64,000 bases of DNA, taken from assembly GCA_964565615.1 (NCBI GenBank), contig CAZMFO010000002.1:16824-80823 (forward strand), given 5' to 3'. The notes beneath the pieces were generated by a model. It did not search any database. It saw nothing but the letters and a program-made list of their open reading frames with translations, and had not been told where the DNA came from. This DNA comes from an uncultured Candidatus Saccharibacteria bacterium (lineage in GTDB: Bacteria > Patescibacteriota > Saccharimonadia > Saccharimonadales > JAGQNJ01). Positions 30,380 to 55,533 of this stretch are shown here, in pieces; the first letter of the stretch is position 1, and every line of letters begins with the position of its first letter. A program made the translations under genes and the position numbers.

Positions 30380-30455
30380 GCCACCTTAGCTCAGTTGGTA
30401 GAGCGACGCATTCGTAACGCGTAGGTCAGCAGTTCAATCCTGCTAGGTGGCTCCA
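30380..30455 (+). tRNA. tRNA-Thr (anticodon CGU), CCA encoded; integration target
   Basis: Acceptor gccacct/aggtggc, loop ttCGTaa, T-arm agcag-ttcaatc-ctgct. The 3' GCTCCA is the left junction of the element. Confidence 0.85.
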
Positions 30456-31986
30456 GAATACGACTTTTTTCAAGATTTGACGGCGTTGCCGTCATTTTTT
30501 GTAGGGTTTGGCGAAAGCCAAACCAAATGTTTTCTTGGGGGGAATGAGATTTTGGATCGCTGGAAGCGACCGCATTTTTGTTTTTGAGTTTGAGGTTCAA
30601 CCCGAAAATTTCCAGCAATAGCGACTTTTTGGCGTTTTGGTCGGCGGAATGAGCGATTTTACAGATAGAAACTGCTCTTTCTAGCCAATTACTCAGCGGT
30701 TCAACCCACTCTAAAGTGCCTAAATGTAAATCGCTCATTTGCTCCTCTATGGTTTTCTTTTGGCTCATAATCTCGGCTTTCTTTTGCGTGTATATTTCAC
30801 GCTCCAAAACGCCGTCAAGAAAACCGTCCAAAAGTCTTTGTAATTTCTCGGACAAATGTGTGAGTTCCCTCCGCATGCCGTTAATTTTACCGTCTATTTG
30901 CTCTTTGTCTGCCAGTTCGTCCGCAGTAGCCCACACACGCATTTTGTCCGCATATTCTTTGGGCAAAGCGAAGCCAGCCAACAGGTCAGATAACTGCTGA
31001 TCTAAAAGTTCAGAACGAACGGCAGGTTCAATACACTTCACAGTTTTGTTTTTACGGCTACACCTATAATAGACATAATGGTGCGTGTTGCCGTTCTTCT
31101 GCCGTTTCGTTTTGTTTTCAGCAGTTATCATCATTCCGCAACTGCAACGCAGTAGTCCGCAGTAGGCTTGTGGCTCTATCAAGCCTTTTGTTGGGTGGCT
31201 TCGCTGTTCTATGACGGCTTGCACTTTATCAAACAGTTTCTTGCTAATAATTGGCGTATGTTTACCCTCGTGTACCTCGCCGCCATATATGAAATGACCG
31301 TAATAAAACGGATTTTTCAAGATATATTTAACCTTGTCTTTGCTATACGGCTTACCACCGCTAGTCTTAACGCCACGCTCAAACAAATAATCTGATATAT
31401 CTTGAAAAGTGCTTTGCCCCAAAGAATATAGAACAAAAATCGCTTCAACTAATTCGGCTTGGCGTTTGTCTATATGCACCGTTTTACTTTTGGTGTTGTT
31501 ATAGTAGCCAAATGGGGCAATTCCGGGGAACTCGCCACGCCGAATTTTTTGGCGAAGCCCACGCTTGGTATTCTCGCTCAAATTATCTACATAGTATTTG
31601 CTCTGACCAAAAGCAATGTTCAGCATAAACTTACCCTGACTGGTATTCTCAAACCAAAAAGTCTGAAACTTTAAGTCAGCTAGGTGGTTTTGGTCAAGCA
31701 AATAGATAATTTGTCCACCGTCAATGCTGTTTCTTGCTAGTCTATCGGGGTGCCACGCTAGTATTGCGTTGGCTTCGCCATTTTGTATGCGTTTTAACAC
31801 TTCGGCGAACTTCGGGCGACCTGGTGTTTTAGCAGATTTCTTTTCAATAACGGTATCTATCACGACTAAGCCGTTATCTTTAGCGTACTTCCGAAGTTCT
31901 GCCAGCTGTGCCTCAATAGACAAGACTTGCTTGTCCTCAACGTCTGTACTCTTACGAGCATACAAAATGTAGCGATTTTTGTTCAT
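30391..31986 (-). CDS. large serine recombinase (integrase)
   Basis: Resolvase-type catalytic N-terminus (YILYARKSTDVEDKQVLSIEAQ, HPDRLARN), recombinase domain, Cys-rich zinc ribbon (CGLLRCSCG...YYRCSRK) and a coiled-coil region. The ORF runs through the attachment core into the tRNA-Thr sequence. Confidence 0.9.
   Translation of the reverse strand: MNKNRYILYARKSTDVEDKQVLSIEAQLAELRKYAKDNGLVVIDTVIEKKSAKTPGRPKFAEVLKRIQNGEANAILAWHPDRLARNSIDGGQIIYLLDQNHLADLKFQTFWFENTSQGKFMLNIAFGQSKYYVDNLSENTKRGLRQKIRRGEFPGIAPFGYYNNTKSKTVHIDKRQAELVEAIFVLYSLGQSTFQDISDYLFERGVKTSGGKPYSKDKVKYILKNPFYYGHFIYGGEVHEGKHTPIISKKLFDKVQAVIEQRSHPTKGLIEPQAYCGLLRCSCGMMITAENKTKRQKNGNTHHYVYYRCSRKNKTVKCIEPAVRSELLDQQLSDLLAGFALPKEYADKMRVWATADELADKEQIDGKINGMRRELTHLSEKLQRLLDGFLDGVLEREIYTQKKAEIMSQKKTIEEQMSDLHLGTLEWVEPLSNWLERAVSICKIAHSADQNAKKSLLLEIFGLNLKLKNKNAVASSDPKSHSPQENIWFGFRQTLQKMTATPSNLEKSRILEPPSRIELLTYALRMRRSTN
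30451..30586 (+). repeat. IR arm A (136 bp), left-terminal copy
   Basis: Reverse complement of 32132-32267 with one mismatch by eye (30556 vs 32162). That mismatch is synonymous (GAT/GAC Asp) in the recombinase frame. Confidence 0.9.
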
Positions 31987-32131
31987 AGCAATTACCCCCA
32001 TAATTTTAATGACCGCCCCAGTTGCGTACAATCAAGAGAAATCTTGTTTGTCTGGGACGGTCATTAAAAAAGACCTCTCTGTTAGATTGTACGCACTACC
32101 ATTTTACCAAATAAAAACCGCCTATGGCGGG

Positions 32132-32517
32132 CAAAAACAAAAATGCGGTCGCTTCCAGCGACCCAAAATCTCATTCCCCCCAAGAAAACATTTGGTTTGG
32201 CTTTCGCCAAACCCTACAAAAAATGACGGCAACGCCGTCAAATCTTGAAAAAAGTCGTATTCTGGAGCATTTCTACCGAAACGCTAGAACCTATTTTAGC
32301 AAAAACCAACAGATAAGAACAGATGTGAAGTGGAAAAAAGAGGACAACCTGCGAAACCAGCCCCGCCGTTAGCTTGCGAAAGTCGCAAGCCCGCCCCGCC
32401 AGCCCTGGATTTTGATTGTTTTTGGATTTCCCCCCGCCGAATTTCTTTTTTGTAGTTGAGAAAATCCAGGTCTGTCGGGTCGGCTGCCGAAAACGGCAGA
32501 AACGGCGTGGCTTTGGG
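32132..32517 (+). repeat. internal 386-bp unit (A' + core + B), an inverted copy of the joined element ends
   Basis: 32132-32267 is the reverse complement of 30451-30586; 32268-32517 is the reverse complement of 35372-35621 (250/250 by eye). Confidence 0.9.
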
Positions 32518-32584
32518 GCAAAACGCCTGTGCTTGGTACAGATATAGGTTCCTGTTATACTAAAGAAAAGATTTTGGAGGTTTT

Positions 32585-34762
32585 ATGTCTTTTGAAGTTG
32601 TTAAGCAATATGAAACACCGCCCAATGAGTTTAACCCGCTCGCTGGACACCCTGACCCAGAGCAATTGACACTAGATAGTCTACGTCAAGGTACTTTGCT
32701 TGCAGGGCGGGAAAAGCCGCTCACATGGGAGCTTGATGAAATCACTTCGGAAGGTGCTTTGCACCGTTACCGCGCACAAGCGGAGATTGAAGCACTTATC
32801 AACCTTGCAGAACGCGGGCCAGTCGAAGTTGAAATTGATGAGACACAAAAGGAGACCTTACGCTCACTCTACAGCTCAGAAGTGTTTGACCCAGAGGTTG
32901 TGATACGGCTTGACCACCTCGGCTACAAGGGGCGTCCGCCACTTGAGCATGACGTTAAAGCAGTTGAAGTATACCTCGCAGAGTTGCTTGACGAAGCTGA
33001 TTTGGGACATCTCAAAGAGTGGGTTCACTTCGGTATGACATCGGAAGATACCAACAACCTTGCCTATAATTACATGCTGCGCGACGCGGCAAACAAAGTT
33101 GTTATACCATCAGTGGCGCGAGTTGCCGACAGATTGGCACATCTTGCGGCTATCTATGCTGACACGCCGACACTTGGCACGACCCACGCGCAAAAGGCTT
33201 CGCCAACGACTGTCGGCAAACAGTTTGGCTACCTACTCTCAAACATCACTCAAGTTGTCGGCGAGCTGGACGAACAGCGACTGACGGGCAAATTCAGCGG
33301 CGCAGTCGGCAATCACAATCCAATGTCGGTACTTTTTCCAGATTTTGACTATGACGCATATGCAAGGGATTTTGTTGAGTCACAAGGCTTTGATTATTCG
33401 CCGGTTGAAAATCAGCGCAATAATCATTTAGCAGTAACCGATTTCCTCGATACTGTGCAGCGTCTGGCGGTTGTCGGCAAAGATGGAACCGATAATGTCT
33501 GGCTGCAAATATTGAACGGCACACTCAAGCAAAAACTGGTTGCGGGTGAAAAAGGTTCATCTACCATGTCGCACAAAATCAATCCGTGGCGACTTGAGAA
33601 CAGCGAATCATTGTTTGAACAGGCTATCGCCTTATCAGGGCGAGTAAGCGAGGGGCTTGTGGCTAGTCGCCACGAACGCGATTTATCAGATCACGATTGG
33701 CAGCGTGCCTATGGCGATATTTTAGGTAGACTGGTCGCTGGCTATAACTATTTTGCAATCCAACTTGACCGCTTGGCTGTCGATGAAGCGCAAACCGGAA
33801 AAACACTCGCCGAATCAGCAGAAGTATTAAGCGAACTAATACAAACAGCAGGTCGGGTATCGGGCGACCCCGAAGCATACGATAAGGTTGTTACACTAAC
33901 CCAGGGCAAGAAGCTTGATTATGCGGGTATTCAGGAAGTCATTAAAGCAGCTTTGCCAGACGGTGAACTACGCGACAGAGTGCTTGCTACAACCCCCGAA
34001 AGTTATACCGGTATTGCAGGCGATAAGGCGCGCGAGGCGGTGTTGGGCTGGCATGCAATCAAAGGTGTAGTTTTACGCGGCGTGCTTGATGAGTCAACCA
34101 GTGTAGACGCAGTGCTGTTTGATTTTGACAATACTTTGCACTTTGGCGACAAAGACGAATTGTTCGCGCGCTTGTCGAGTATTGCTTCGCAGCTTGGCTC
34201 TGGCTATACAGAGGAAGAAATCCGCACTTTCGGAAATCGCAGCGATTATCTCGAAATGAAAAAACTCATGGTCGAAGAACATAATCGCCGCTTCCCGAAT
34301 AGCCGCATTTCTGAGGCTGATTTTCAGGAGGCTAACGATTCGGTAACAGGCAGTTTTGACTACTTGCTCACACCAGCGCCGAGAGCAGCAGAGATTTTGG
34401 AACAGCTACGCGATTCTGGCAAAAAAACGGGGCTGGTAACAACGCGCGGCAATAATTCGCGCGATAGATTGCTACAACATCATGGCCTTGCCGATTCATT
34501 TGATGTTATTGTTGGTCGCGGCGATGCCGCGCAGCGCAAACCGCACCCGCAGCCAATCGCCCTCGCGCTTGCAAAGCTAGGCGTCGATAACTACAGGCGC
34601 ACCCTGTATGTTGGCGATTTGCAGATTGACGACGTGGGAGCGGGTAATGCGCTCGGCATGAAAACAGCACTTATAAATGACACGCCGCTTGACCCTCAGG
34701 GTCCTGTGCCGACTTACCATTGGGCATCATTAGAACCGCTAGCGCGTAGGTATACGAGGTAA
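32585..34762 (+). CDS. adenylosuccinate lyase-like (fumarate-lyase superfamily) / HAD phosphatase fusion protein
   Basis: PurB-like motifs HFGMTSEDTNN, TLGTTHAQKASPTTVGKQ, GKFSGAVGNHN and the signature GSSTMSHKINPWRLENSE. C-terminal HAD motifs VLFDFDNTL (DxDxT), LVTTRG, KPHPQP, YVGDLQIDDVGAGNA. RBS ggagg upstream. Confidence 0.75.
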   Translation: MSFEVVKQYETPPNEFNPLAGHPDPEQLTLDSLRQGTLLAGREKPLTWELDEITSEGALHRYRAQAEIEALINLAERGPVEVEIDETQKETLRSLYSSEVFDPEVVIRLDHLGYKGRPPLEHDVKAVEVYLAELLDEADLGHLKEWVHFGMTSEDTNNLAYNYMLRDAANKVVIPSVARVADRLAHLAAIYADTPTLGTTHAQKASPTTVGKQFGYLLSNITQVVGELDEQRLTGKFSGAVGNHNPMSVLFPDFDYDAYARDFVESQGFDYSPVENQRNNHLAVTDFLDTVQRLAVVGKDGTDNVWLQILNGTLKQKLVAGEKGSSTMSHKINPWRLENSESLFEQAIALSGRVSEGLVASRHERDLSDHDWQRAYGDILGRLVAGYNYFAIQLDRLAVDEAQTGKTLAESAEVLSELIQTAGRVSGDPEAYDKVVTLTQGKKLDYAGIQEVIKAALPDGELRDRVLATTPESYTGIAGDKAREAVLGWHAIKGVVLRGVLDESTSVDAVLFDFDNTLHFGDKDELFARLSSIASQLGSGYTEEEIRTFGNRSDYLEMKKLMVEEHNRRFPNSRISEADFQEANDSVTGSFDYLLTPAPRAAEILEQLRDSGKKTGLVTTRGNNSRDRLLQHHGLADSFDVIVGRGDAAQRKPHPQPIALALAKLGVDNYRRTLYVGDLQIDDVGAGNALGMKTALINDTPLDPQGPVPTYHWASLEPLARRYTR

Positions 34763-35331
34763 TGGCCGAGAAAATACCAATTTCCGGCGGGCCACACACT
34801 GGCAAAACAACGCTACTTGAAGCGTTAAGAGTGCAGTTTCCAGACGCTCATTTCGTTCCAGAACCTGCCACGAATGTAATTACAAGAGAGCTTGAAACAG
34901 AGCGAGCAAACCCAAGCCATAAACCGCGTGTACCCTGGGTAGACTATCGACAGTTCGGCCCACTCGTTGCCGAAGAATCAGAAGTGCTTGAATCAGATAT
35001 ACCAGAGGCAGCCACAATCGCTTTTCAGGACAGAAGTCTTATCGACACAATCGCATATAGCCGCCTTAATAACTTTGATGAGTTTGTGCCAGAAGTAAGC
35101 CGTAGAGTTGCAATTGCTCGGTACAGCTTTGCGCTAATTTGCCAGCCAGTCGGCGAGTATACCACTACAACAGTCAGGCGAGAAACGCAGGACGAAGCCC
35201 TACAAACACACCTAGAGATTGAGCGTGCTTATAATGAGTCTGGCATTGAAGTCATATCAATCCCTGCAATCAGTACCAATGAGCGCGTTGCGCTCATTAC
35301 AGAAGTCCTGCAATCTCGTAGCTTGGTTTGA
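34762..35331 (+). CDS. small P-loop NTPase (AAA_28/NadR-like, COG3911-type predicted ATPase or kinase)
   Basis: Walker A ISGGPHTGKTTLLEAL, FVPEPAT, FQDRSLIDTIAY; start overlaps the upstream stop (TAATG). Confidence 0.6.
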   Translation: MAEKIPISGGPHTGKTTLLEALRVQFPDAHFVPEPATNVITRELETERANPSHKPRVPWVDYRQFGPLVAEESEVLESDIPEAATIAFQDRSLIDTIAYSRLNNFDEFVPEVSRRVAIARYSFALICQPVGEYTTTTVRRETQDEALQTHLEIERAYNESGIEVISIPAISTNERVALITEVLQSRSLV

Positions 35332-35371
35332 TTTGTATATGTGTCGCTTGCGACACATGGCGGCTCTGCCG

Positions 35372-35626
35372 CCCAAAGCCACGCCGTTTCTGCCGTTTTC
35401 GGCAGCCGACCCGACAGACCTGGATTTTCTCAACTACAAAAAAGAAATTCGGCGGGGGGAAATCCAAAAACAATCAAAATCCAGGGCTGGCGGGGCGGGC
35501 TTGCGACTTTCGCAAGCTAACGGCGGGGCTGGTTTCGCAGGTTGTCCTCTTTTTTCCACTTCACATCTGTTCTTATCTGTTGGTTTTTGCTAAAATAGGT
35601 TCTAGCGTTTCGGTAGAAATGCTCCA
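35372..35626 (+). repeat. IR arm B' (250 bp + CTCCA core), right-terminal copy
   Basis: Perfect reverse complement of 32268-32517; ends ...cggtagaaatgCTCCA, 3 nt before tRNA-Gly. Confidence 0.9.
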
Positions 35627-35629
35627 TTT

Positions 35630-35703
35630 GCGGGATTAGTATAGTGATAGTACGCTTGCTTCCCAAGCAAGAGGTACGAGTTTGATTCTCGTATCCCGCA
35701 CCA
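35630..35703 (+). tRNA. tRNA-Gly (anticodon CCC), CCA encoded
   Basis: Acceptor gcgggat/atcccgc, anticodon stem cttgc/gcaag, loop ttCCCaa, T-arm acgag-tttgatt-ctcgt. Confidence 0.85.
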
Positions 35704-47708: not shown

Positions 47709-47928
47709 TCCCTCTACAACGAGGCTAGAGCCTATTTTATGGCAAAAAGCTGATTGCGAGAATGGTCGCTTCGCCCCGACCGCCTGTTCCAGCTAAGGCT
47801 GGAACGCCCCCGCCAGAAAGTCGCCCTTTAACTATTTAGATTACCCCGCCAATTCCATATTTTTAATGGAAAAGGCCGGATTTTCTGTCGGTTCGCCTGC
47901 GCTAAAGCGCAGAGACGGACGGGGCTTC
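47709..47928 (-). repeat. B-type repeat arm (copy C), imperfect inverted partner of 49604-49823
   Basis: The reverse complement aligns by eye with 49604-49823, with scattered substitutions and a few small indels; both end in cctcgttgYAtagggaGACCA. Confidence 0.8.
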
Positions 47929-49539: not shown

Positions 49540-49603
49540 ATCTGTTACATATTACCACTATAAGCGGTTTTTGTCAAACTCGTGTATGATCTGTAATCTA
49601 GCG

Positions 49604-49828
49604 AAGCCCCGTCCGCCTCTGCCATTTATGGCAAGCGAACCGCCAGAAAATCCAGCCTTTTCCATTAAAATTAAGGAATTGGCGGGGTAATCTAAATAGT
49701 TAAAGGGCGACTTTCTGGCGGGGCGCGTTCCGGCCTTAGCTGGAACAGGTGGTCGGGTCTGAACGGCCATTTTCGCAATCAGCTTTTCGTCATAAAATAG
49801 ATTCTAGCCTCGTTGCATAGGGAGACCA
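49604..49828 (+). repeat. B-type repeat arm (copy C') ending in the GACCA core
   Basis: See 47709-47928. Followed by a degenerate A-type arm (49829 to about 49950) that resembles 30456-30500. Confidence 0.8.
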
Positions 49829-51940: not shown

Positions 51941-52207
51941 CGACCGCCAGGCCGTTTCTGCCCTTTTGGGCAGGCGACCCGACTGACTTGATTTTTTCTC
52001 AACTGAAAAAAGAAATTTGGTTGGGGTAAAAATCAAGAAATTGTAAAAATCAGGGCTGGCGGAGCGGGTCAGCCTTTTCACCCCACAAAATTCGCTGCGC
52101 TGGATTATTGAGGGGACCCCGATTTGGCTGGAAACAGTAGGGCTTGGTTTCTCGTTTTCAGCTATTTGCCATAAAATAGGTTCTAGTCTCGTTGTAGAGG
52201 CAAATCA
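51941..52207 (+). repeat. B-type repeat arm (copy D), diverged
   Basis: Shares gccgtttctgcc-hairpin, cgacccgac, ttctcaact.aaaaaagaaatt, cagggctggcgg.gcggg and ccataaaataggttctag.ctcgttgtagagg with 35372-35621 and 49604-49823. Confidence 0.7.
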
Positions 52208-55104: not shown

Positions 55105-55533
55105 TTTGCCAGGTTATCGGTTAGTCGCTCTGCACCCACAATTTACTTAAATGAGTAAAATATTGAGTTGTTGTGGGTGCAGAGAGGAAAGTCCGGGCAA
55201 CTTAGGGAAGGGCAGTTGCTAACAGCAACCAGAGGTAACTCTAGGGAAAGTGCCACAGAAACTAAACTGTCTCGTACCCTCTGTAGATGAATAGTATAGT
55301 CTATAGAAGGTACGAGGCAAAGGTGAAAAGAGCGAGGTAAGAGCTCGCAGTTAATTATGGTGACATAATTAAGGGGTAAACCCTGTCCGTTGCAAGGTAG
55401 TGTATTATTTGTGCTTTTGCACAATAGTGTCCCGCTAAATATACGATTTAATCCGCTCGATCTAGGAGGCAACTTCTAGACTAGATAGATGACTAGCTAT
55501 TACAGAACCCGGCTTATAGATAGGCTGGCAAAC
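55105..55533 (+). ncRNA. rnpB: RNase P RNA (bacterial type A)
   Basis: Conserved gaggaaagtccgggc (55183-55197), ggtaagagc, acagaacccggcttat near the 3' end, and P1 pairing tgccag/ctggca. Confidence 0.85.

Follow-up and report, generated by a model that had tools for sequence, protein, structure and literature searches.

A PurB-type lyase–HAD phosphatase fusion and its kinase-fold partner on a small integrative element of Saccharibacteria: a probable accessory module of purine-nucleotide processing

What are a lyase, a phosphatase and a kinase-like protein doing together on a mobile element of an ultra-small bacterium? The question is raised by two adjacent genes in a 64,000-nucleotide (nt) contig stretch from an uncultured Candidatus Saccharibacteria bacterium, referred to below as the window (the whole stretch of DNA that was analysed). 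The first gene (32585–34762, plus strand) encodes a 725-amino acid (aa) fusion of a PurB-like lyase to a HAD phosphatase, and the second (34762–35331, plus strand) a 189-aa P-loop protein of the AAA_28 family. An earlier annotation made without database searches (the sequence-only reading) had described both proteins as mobile cargo and proposed a nucleotide-modifying, nucleotide-depleting or anti-phage module, naming purine salvage or interconversion among its options. Of these options, our evidence favours the last. The two genes are best explained, with a probability of roughly 60%, as an accessory purine-nucleotide processing module typical of Candidate Phyla Radiation bacteria (CPR, Patescibacteria), carried here on a small active integrative element.

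We delimited the fusion using the open reading frame (ORF) list, Pfam, NCBIfam, alignments and structure models. It comprises a PurB-like lyase domain (approximately nt 32666–34033, aa 28–483) and a HAD-IA phosphatase domain (approximately nt 34103–34741, aa 507–719), both on the plus strand. Its translation contains the motifs HFGMTSED, THAQKASPTT, GKFSGAVGNHN, GSSTMSHKINP, FDFDNT, TTRG, KPHP and GDLQIDD, and Pfam profiles match the lyase part far above their cut-offs (Lyase_1, aa 125–342, 4e-26, 92.5 bits versus 27; ASL_C, aa 361–475, 2e-18, 66.7 bits versus 35), so that the protein is as the sequence-only reading had described it. The closest NCBIfam model for this part is the E. coli-type PurB (PRK09285, 1e-99). 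Like that enzyme (PDB 2PTR/2PTS and 3BHG), the window protein combines Lyase_1 with ASL_C, and it aligns end to end with the solved PurB structures 3bhg (7e-63) and 2pts (8.5e-62) at approximately 30–33% identity. In an alignment of the fusion with E. coli PurB (from NC_000913.3) and 40 further homologues, H171, S295, K301, N303, H91, D92, T122, S123, Q247, R335 and R344 (E. coli numbering) are kept in the window protein and in every family member whose aligned region is present, and conservation across the alignment extends to the SSxMxHKxNP loop as well as to His171 and Ser295, which serve as catalytic acid and base, respectively. A loss of active-site residues on proper alignment, which had been raised as a possible objection to the lyase assignment, was thus not observed. 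The proline-to-serine change in the signature loop (GSSTMSHKINP) is found only in the Saccharibacteria branch, the other CPR members having GSSVMPHKINP. Judged from its sequence, the 725-aa protein is shown to be a homologue of the E. coli-type lyase of adenylosuccinate and succinylaminoimidazole carboxamide ribonucleotide (SAICAR), with an intact set of catalytic residues, fused to a HAD-IA phosphatase.

The phosphatase part of the fusion matches the Pfam profile HAD_2 at aa 510–696 (1e-24, 88 bits versus a cut-off of 23.8), the HAD_2/Hydrolase matches spanning aa 507–697, and all four HAD motifs are invariant: FDFDNT (DxDxT), VTTRG (T), RKPHP (K) and GDLQIDD (GDxxxD). The model of this domain (predicted local distance difference test score, pLDDT, 91.6) resembles C1-cap HAD-IA phosphatases (E-values of 1e-13 to 1e-11) and matches the phosphatase domain of bifunctional MtlD (3e-12). 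MtlD of Acinetobacter baumannii (mannitol-1-phosphate dehydrogenase/phosphatase, PDB 7OCN–7OCU) likewise consists of a C1-cap HAD-IA domain fused to a metabolic enzyme, but the window fusion has another partner enzyme and another domain order. The domain scores below every characterised NCBIfam equivalog cut-off (PGP_bact, 69.7 versus 180 bits; YjjG, 35 versus 160 bits). An assignment of its substrate from the fold was dropped, since the structural neighbours are generic HAD-IA phosphatases.

The stop codon of the fusion and the start codon of the second gene overlap by 1 nt (gtAATGg), which bears out the translational overlap (TAATG) reported earlier. The encoded 189-aa protein was analysed with Pfam, AlphaFold2 and Foldseek. 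It matches AAA_28 (1.5e-24, 87.5 bits versus a cut-off of 27) and carries a P-loop GxxxxGKT and a DR motif. Its AlphaFold2 model (pLDDT 94.6) retrieved thymidylate kinases, the nicotinamide-riboside-kinase domain of NadR and deoxycytidine kinase (dCK), with template modelling scores of 0.62–0.78. The protein therefore shares the fold of the NadR kinase domain and of thymidylate and deoxynucleoside kinases (PDB 6GYF, 8X7F, 5UIV and dCK). Identity to the NadR kinase domain is 20–22%, and the NadR model TIGR01526 scores 27.1 bits against a cut-off of 341, corresponding to the kinase-like domain only. In contrast to NadR, the protein stands alone and has no nicotinamide mononucleotide (NMN) adenylyltransferase domain. 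The models indicate that this is a small protein of the nucleoside/nucleoside monophosphate (NMP) kinase fold and not an AAA+ ATPase. A 48%-identical orthologue in an Acidimicrobiales genome adjoins an inosine-uridine nucleoside hydrolase gene. More distant AAA_28 relatives (P0417, P0425, P0460, P0486, P0386 and P0395) show fusions to CYTH (triphosphate tunnel), MnmC-type methyltransferase (Methyltransf_30) or Zeta_toxin-type kinase domains, or tandem AAA_28 domains; these architectures fit nucleotide chemistry, unspecifically.

Evidence on the pathway came from an unfused lyase of the same clade (P0120), which carries the GRD/DH variant of the clade signature described below. This gene lies in an operon that encodes, in order, AIRC (PurE), SAICAR_synt (PurC), IMPCHas (the N-domain of PurH), the lyase and a HAD protein. 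The HAD gene is separate, encodes 227 aa and is 40% identical over its full length to the HAD domain of the window protein. Because this lyase–HAD pair sits in a purE-purC-purH(N) operon, the partnership of the two enzymes is older than their fusion and tied to purine biosynthesis. Within our comparisons this operon is the strongest argument that the lyase would be a true SAICAR/adenylosuccinate lyase, and it argues against a role in defence.

Several observations weigh against a purine salvage or interconversion module. A tblastn search with E. coli PurA over 1.7 Mb of loci placed purA beside none of the fusion loci, and neither purA nor purC, purE or purH occurs within 10 kb of any of them. 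The cassette itself contains no enzyme that makes adenylosuccinate or SAICAR. The lyase part scores below the equivalog cut-offs of both PurB models (PRK09285, 334.1 versus 446 bits; TIGR00928, 192.9 versus 326 bits), and all members of the fusion clade have GRE or GRD together with DH at two sites at which the canonical PurBs of the alignment have GRY and DS. These features, together with the C-terminal HAD domain and the mobile location in the window, set the lyase apart from E. coli-type PurB. In addition, fold comparison places the HAD domain near phosphatases of sugar phosphates and phosphoglycolate rather than near known nucleotidases. A phosphatase and a kinase that worked on one nucleoside would also cancel each other in a futile cycle, barring regulation or a difference in substrates.

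In the same tblastn search, purA was found directly beside many unfused purB homologues, including those of the nearest unfused clade. The nearest unfused relatives (GRH/DH; loci L035, 9884–11011, and L036, 11512–12639), from metagenome-assembled genomes (MAGs) labelled Nanoarchaeota and Methanosarcinales, have purA immediately downstream. Compared with them, the purA link is lost in the fused CPR clade. MAGs carrying the labels Gammaproteobacteria or Dojkabacteria contain a separate PurB clade with GRF/DK (L042, 11526–12779; L050, 11514–12782; L052, 12973–14307); the next gene there encodes a divergent PurA-like protein (26–30% identity to E. coli PurA), an unusual pairing of purB with a purA-like gene.

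The two signature sites correspond to the N-terminal GRY (Y16 of E. coli PurB) and to the C-terminal D-S at positions 339–340 (S340). In two other lyase clades the residues at 16 and 340 are H and H or F and K, so that the two positions co-vary (E/D-H, H-H and F-K). We take Y16 and S340 to lie near the 5'-phosphate of the substrate in E. coli PurB. In a paper on human ADSL, Arg303 is the only residue named as a phosphate ligand. By analogy with the PurZ/PurB route to 2-aminoadenine, the lyase could cleave another N-succinyl intermediate while the phosphatase and the kinase edit the nucleotide pool, so that the module would make or remove a non-canonical purine. The co-varying changes (from Y/S to E or D with H, and to H/H or F/K elsewhere), the scores under the PurB equivalog cut-offs and the missing PurA linkage are compatible with this proposal. 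Moreover, the cassette shares with the phage Z-genome (2-aminoadenine) pathway a PurB-type lyase borne by a mobile element, and the lyase of that known pathway uses an N6-succinyl purine nucleotide. However, no PurA/PurZ-like synthetase, dATPase (DatZ) or ribo- or deoxyribonucleoside triphosphate pyrophosphatase (MazZ) is encoded in or near the cassette, and the fusion is absent from the phage collections searched. Furthermore, PurC on one side and downstream purine genes on the other enclose the unfused member of the E/D16–H340 clade, which at this place is expected to act on SAICAR. Since its operon produces SAICAR, the clade signature does not have to imply another substrate, and we consider a modified-purine pathway distinctly unlikely.

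The pair is carried by an integrative element of 5,171 bp (30456–35626) with a guanine plus cytosine (GC) content of 0.473, versus 0.406 in the rest of the window. The two-gene cassette reaches 0.497, above every other 2.75-kb stretch of the window (highest value, 0.463), in agreement with the earlier description of the element as GC-rich. The layout is transfer RNA (tRNA)-Asp (minus strand), tRNA-Thr, arm A, recombinase (minus strand), arm A', arm B, cargo, arm B', ttt and tRNA-Gly. The tRNA-Thr(CGT) gene (30380–30455, plus strand; ARAGORN and Rfam) is intact after insertion, and its 3' end, GCTCCA (30450–30455), forms the core of the left attachment site (attL) on the host side. Arm A (30450–30586, 137 nt), the half-site of the element's attachment site (attP) next to tRNA-Thr, contains, on the minus strand, the last approximately 45 recombinase codons and, on the plus strand, hairpins resembling terminators, and recurs as a 99% inverted copy (repeat I2) in arm A' (32132–32268). 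Arm B (32263–32517, 255 nt) is a 100% inverted copy of arm B' (35372–35626, 255 nt), which constitutes the right attachment site (attR) and ends in the core GCTCCA (35621–35626). The native 3-nt spacer ttt (35627–35629) and the host gene tRNA-Gly(CCC) (35630–35703, plus strand) follow, beyond the bacterial attachment site (attB). The hexamer GCTCCA is thus present at the tRNA/A junction, in inverted form at the A'/B junction, and at the end of B'. No Rfam family matched in the repeat arms. A candidate promoter (TTGGTA-17-TATACT with a TG extension, 32533–32561, plus strand), proposed from a consensus scan only, lies inside the unique cargo segment, upstream of a GGAGG and the ATG of the fusion.

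The other gene of the element (30391–32031, minus strand) encodes a large serine recombinase of 546 aa with Resolvase (1e-24), Recombinase (5e-20) and Zn_ribbon_recom (5e-7) domains in Pfam; its best NCBIfam model is CcrB (143 bits versus a cut-off of 900). As integrated, its ORF extends across arm A and enters tRNA-Thr antisense (30391–30455, minus strand), giving a protein that ends in ...SRILEPPSRIELLTYALRMRRSTN; from the circle it would instead be read on into arm B (...SRILEHFYRNARTYFSKNQQ...), a frame visible in the ORF at 32124–32372. Because the ORF crosses the junction, the C-terminal tail of the recombinase would depend on the integration state. The recombinase ORF of a related element (L142) likewise enters its tRNA-Leu. 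The recombinase would integrate the circle by recombining attP (B'-GCTCCA-A) with attB at the 3' end of tRNA-Thr, thereby regenerating the tRNA. The domain set is that of the SCCmec Ccr proteins, TnpX/TndX of Tn4451/Tn5397 and serine phage integrases. The short identical core in attL, attR and attB, the precise presence or absence and the small number of cargo genes are also traits of these elements. The window element differs from them in targeting a tRNA 3' end and in carrying a second, inverted attP of approximately 386 bp. This internal copy (32132–32517) arises where A' and B abut (repeats I2 and I1, with a 6-nt overlap at the core 32263–32268). It is an inverted, 99–100% identical copy of the B'-core-A junction predicted for the excised circle, and it divides the element in two, with the recombinase on one side and the cargo on the other. 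The same internal layout occurs in L142 (5662–5766, 7443–7713 and 10664–10835), with the core GCACCA, a 49%-identical recombinase and another tRNA. The internal A'-core-B segment probably has a function, being conserved in two diverged elements. We found no description of a double inverted attP layout, although no literature search was aimed at it.

Since GCTCCA is shared by the tRNA-Thr end and the arm junctions, we predicted attB as tRNA-Thr...GGCTCCA followed by ttt and tRNA-Gly. This predicted site is an exact substring of two independent Logan contigs (L057, SRR25436094; L058, SRR36479851). On either side of the site the contigs match the window at 100% identity, and they join position 30455 directly to 35627 via GCTCCA. 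The exact attB pattern gave no matches in Joint Genome Institute (JGI) metagenome contigs. In 47 related metagenomic loci, which share the synteny tRNA-Arg, ppiC, tRNA-Asp, tRNA-Thr, tRNA-Gly, p117, GT, nrdR and tgt, the gap between tRNA-Thr and tRNA-Gly is 0–254 nt (median 16), compared with 5,174 nt in the window, and none of the 47 has the cassette between these tRNA genes. Copies of the cassette that are 99.8–100% identical were found with three different right flanks: that of the window, one that continues after GCTCCA with gaagcggaatt..., an 89-aa gene, L33 and tRNA-Trp (L147, L148 and L151), and one that begins with aagtaa (L007). The same architecture occurs at tRNA-Leu(CAG) with the core GCACCA in L142, to which L008 is 99.6% identical; compared with the window, the L142 recombinase is 49% identical and its cargo 82–89%. 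In a further locus (L011) the recombinase is 33% and the cargo 77% identical to those of the window. The empty site, the alternative flanks and the mismatch between recombinase and cargo identities indicate that the pair is truly cargo of an element family, probably an active one, and has been moved by divergent recombinases. The earlier description of the pair as mobile-element cargo is thereby upheld.

Perfect 255-nt inverted repeats invite the objection that the repeats and the insertion are an assembly artefact, that is, a chimeric or mis-joined contig. These repeats are longer than the assembler k-mer, short contigs (L007 and L008) end inside them, and the orientation of the cargo relative to its flank differs between L147 and L148. 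All three junctions nevertheless carry the same 6-nt core, identical to the tRNA 3' end, the empty site equals the prediction to the base, and the architecture recurs at another tRNA in an independent element whose recombinase is 49% identical and whose core is changed to match. An artefact is therefore extremely improbable. As to the orientation, the flank with the 89-aa gene, L33 and tRNA-Trp is connected through the 255-nt arm to the cargo's 5' end in one of the samples and to its 3' end in the other (L147, 1–1366; L148, 1815–3132), which is either a real inversion or assembler ambiguity; because the 255-nt repeat exceeds the assembly k-mer, the two orientations are no proof of inversion. 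Contigs L150 and L152 show the order cargo-B'-core-A, which fits a circle or an inverted isomer, but the path crosses the 255-nt repeat, which is longer than k, so that this order is likewise no proof.

If the pair moves, is it confined to mobile elements? The full fusion was found in more than 110 protein clusters (41–100% identity), and the named sources are Saccharibacteria/Saccharimonadales, Roizmanbacteria and other CPR bacteria, including large chromosomal contigs (778 kb and 549 kb). When one genome for each GTDB species was scanned, within the limits of the search patterns used, the fusion was detected in approximately 22 of 185,579 species, approximately 13 of them Saccharibacteria representatives; besides Saccharibacteria, the carriers are Nomura-, Roizman- and Levyibacteria, together with a few MAGs labelled Woesearchaeota, Opitutae or Gammaproteobacteria. 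This distribution is clearly patchy. AAA_28 lies directly downstream of the fusion in 16 of 21 species representatives (2 of the 16 being a divergent AAA_28 subtype), and in the majority of species no gap separates its start from the end of the fusion, the two either abutting or overlapping. Clustering of ORFs over 28 loci revealed no shared neighbour besides the fusion and AAA_28, and the chromosomal context is non-syntenic, differing species by species. In most genomes the GC content of the pair equals that of its flanks and there is no recombinase; it exceeds the flanks by 9–10 points only where a serine recombinase is adjacent (the window and L011). The pair is therefore not element-specific but a gene pair of ultra-small CPR bacteria. 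A tRNA gene (Met, Met, Gln or Trp) lies 165–310 nt upstream of the pair at several loci, and at L020 the pair is flanked by 54-nt inverted repeats. At single loci, genes of nucleotide metabolism are nearby: NUDIX, HIT, Nuc_deoxyrib_tr (nucleoside 2-deoxyribosyltransferase) and DHO_dh (dihydroorotate dehydrogenase).

The wide occurrence of the fusion in CPR bacteria, at native GC and on chromosomal contigs of 778 and 549 kb, is what one would expect of an ordinary housekeeping PurB that happens to lie beside a recombinase, with the HAD domain and AAA_28 as incidental companions. The sequence-only reading had named a common chromosomal purB variant as the outcome that would tell against it, and half of this is what we found: the fusion is common in Saccharibacteria and other CPR bacteria at host GC. 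The other half does not apply, as the entire 5.17-kb segment is missing from genomes that are otherwise 100% identical to the window, the context differs in every species, and the pattern-limited scan found only the few carriers given above. Because the pair is non-syntenic and present or absent within one strain, it appears to be accessory rather than housekeeping. Nor do the companions seem incidental, since the HAD partnership survives fusion and fission and AAA_28 is kept in 16 of 21 species. We regard the housekeeping explanation as very unlikely.

An accessory gene pair on an apparently active mobile element could also serve in anti-phage defence or addiction, with the module depleting or altering the nucleotide pool on infection or stabilising the element. 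The patchy and non-syntenic distribution, the presence or absence within a strain and the combination of nucleotide-directed activities in one module are in line with this idea, and at locus L001 a Zeta_toxin/AAA_33 kinase adjoins the fusion. Neither the fusion nor the AAA_28 protein, however, has a significant match in PADLOC-DB v2, the sole match being Csx3 (E = 0.027) over 23 P-loop residues of the AAA_28 protein. The fusion is absent from 50,697 phage records (tblastn) and from an IMG/VR scan, and no sensor, regulator, toxin or restriction-modification gene recurs among its neighbours. The pair is mostly at host GC and without a recombinase, and the unfused orthologous pair belongs to a purine biosynthetic operon. 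A defence or addiction role is thus unlikely, and the headline of the sequence-only reading (a nucleotide-modifying, nucleotide-depleting or anti-phage module) is not borne out, while the mobile cargo and the paired architecture on which it was built stand. We also rejected a phage-borne auxiliary gene as the origin of the fusion, the phage records having given generic purB or HAD matches only (23–32% identity), many of them in contaminated records.

The combination of lyase, HAD phosphatase and kinase is, in our best reading, a horizontally spreading module of purine salvage or interconversion. Saccharibacteria are reported to have no complete pathway for making nucleotides de novo and to rely on an external supply (PMC7786006), and horizontal transfer is frequent among Patescibacteria (PMC12455944). 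In such a module, the lyase would remove fumarate from SAICAR and/or adenylosuccinate to yield aminoimidazole carboxamide ribonucleotide (AICAR) or adenosine monophosphate. The fused phosphatase would act on a purine nucleotide of the lyase pathway, most simply the product of the lyase, a proposal made by analogy with other enzyme–HAD fusions, which dephosphorylate the product of the fused enzyme. The kinase may trap or re-phosphorylate a purine (ribo)nucleoside or NMP. Together, the three activities could allow a nucleotide-auxotrophic episymbiont to interconvert scavenged purine compounds. In the literature searched there is no paper linking CPR bacteria or Saccharibacteria to adenylosuccinate or PurB to a HAD fusion, and none describing the gene pair, in keeping with the earlier statement that it is not a recognised system.

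A bolder version of the salvage reading, which we put forward tentatively as possible though improbable, is that fusion and kinase form a self-contained, PurA-independent route that uses a host-derived purine intermediate and has spread among CPR bacteria on an undescribed class of minimal serine-integrase elements. The kinase might, for example, trap an imported riboside (SAICA-riboside, succinyladenosine or AICA-riboside), after which fumarate would be eliminated, while the phosphatase would set the direction of flux. As part of the same proposal, the elements would insert at the 3' ends of tRNA genes and each contain two attP copies in inverted orientation.

Apart from the element itself, its surroundings showed further possible signs of insertion. 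Additional genes for large serine recombinases adjoin tRNA-Asp of this tRNA cluster in related genomes, where they come without the purB cassette (L072, 4308–5870; L087, approximately 370–1930); that of L072 runs into tRNA-Asp and has other unannotated ORFs upstream. The tRNA-Asp/Thr/Gly cluster looks like an integration hot spot. In some relatives (L122, L065, L072, L074, L124 and others) the spacer between tRNA-Thr and tRNA-Gly measures 100–254 nt, and in L122 it contains an apparent duplicate of the 3' half of tRNA-Thr. Such long spacers may be scars of past insertions or excisions. A hairpin repeat of approximately 125 nt (CCGCC..CAG..GGATTTT ... AAAATCC..CTG..GGCGG) was found at 51946–52068, 49600–49725, 47808–47928, 32390–32511 and 35378–35499. 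The copies in arms B and B' are 80% identical to that at 51946–52068, and those at 49600–49725 and 47808–47928 are intergenic and came to light because the equivalent arm of L142 is 73–77% identical to them. The repeat matches no Rfam family and may represent a small mobile repeat, a structured terminator or a structured RNA. Elsewhere in the window, 55109–55532 encodes an ordinary bacterial class A RNase P RNA (254 bits).

CPR bacteria cannot make nucleotides and have to take purines from their hosts. Because the module is conserved, accessory and horizontally moving, and its fused form is linked to neither PurA nor de novo genes, it appears to indicate a specific salvage step and would make nucleotide-scavenging capacity an exchangeable trait in these organisms. 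The carrier element is present or absent in natural populations. It may also provide a possible part for genetic tools in Saccharibacteria, as it comprises 5.2 kb with one serine integrase, an attP of approximately 386 bp and an attB at the 3' end of tRNA-Thr.

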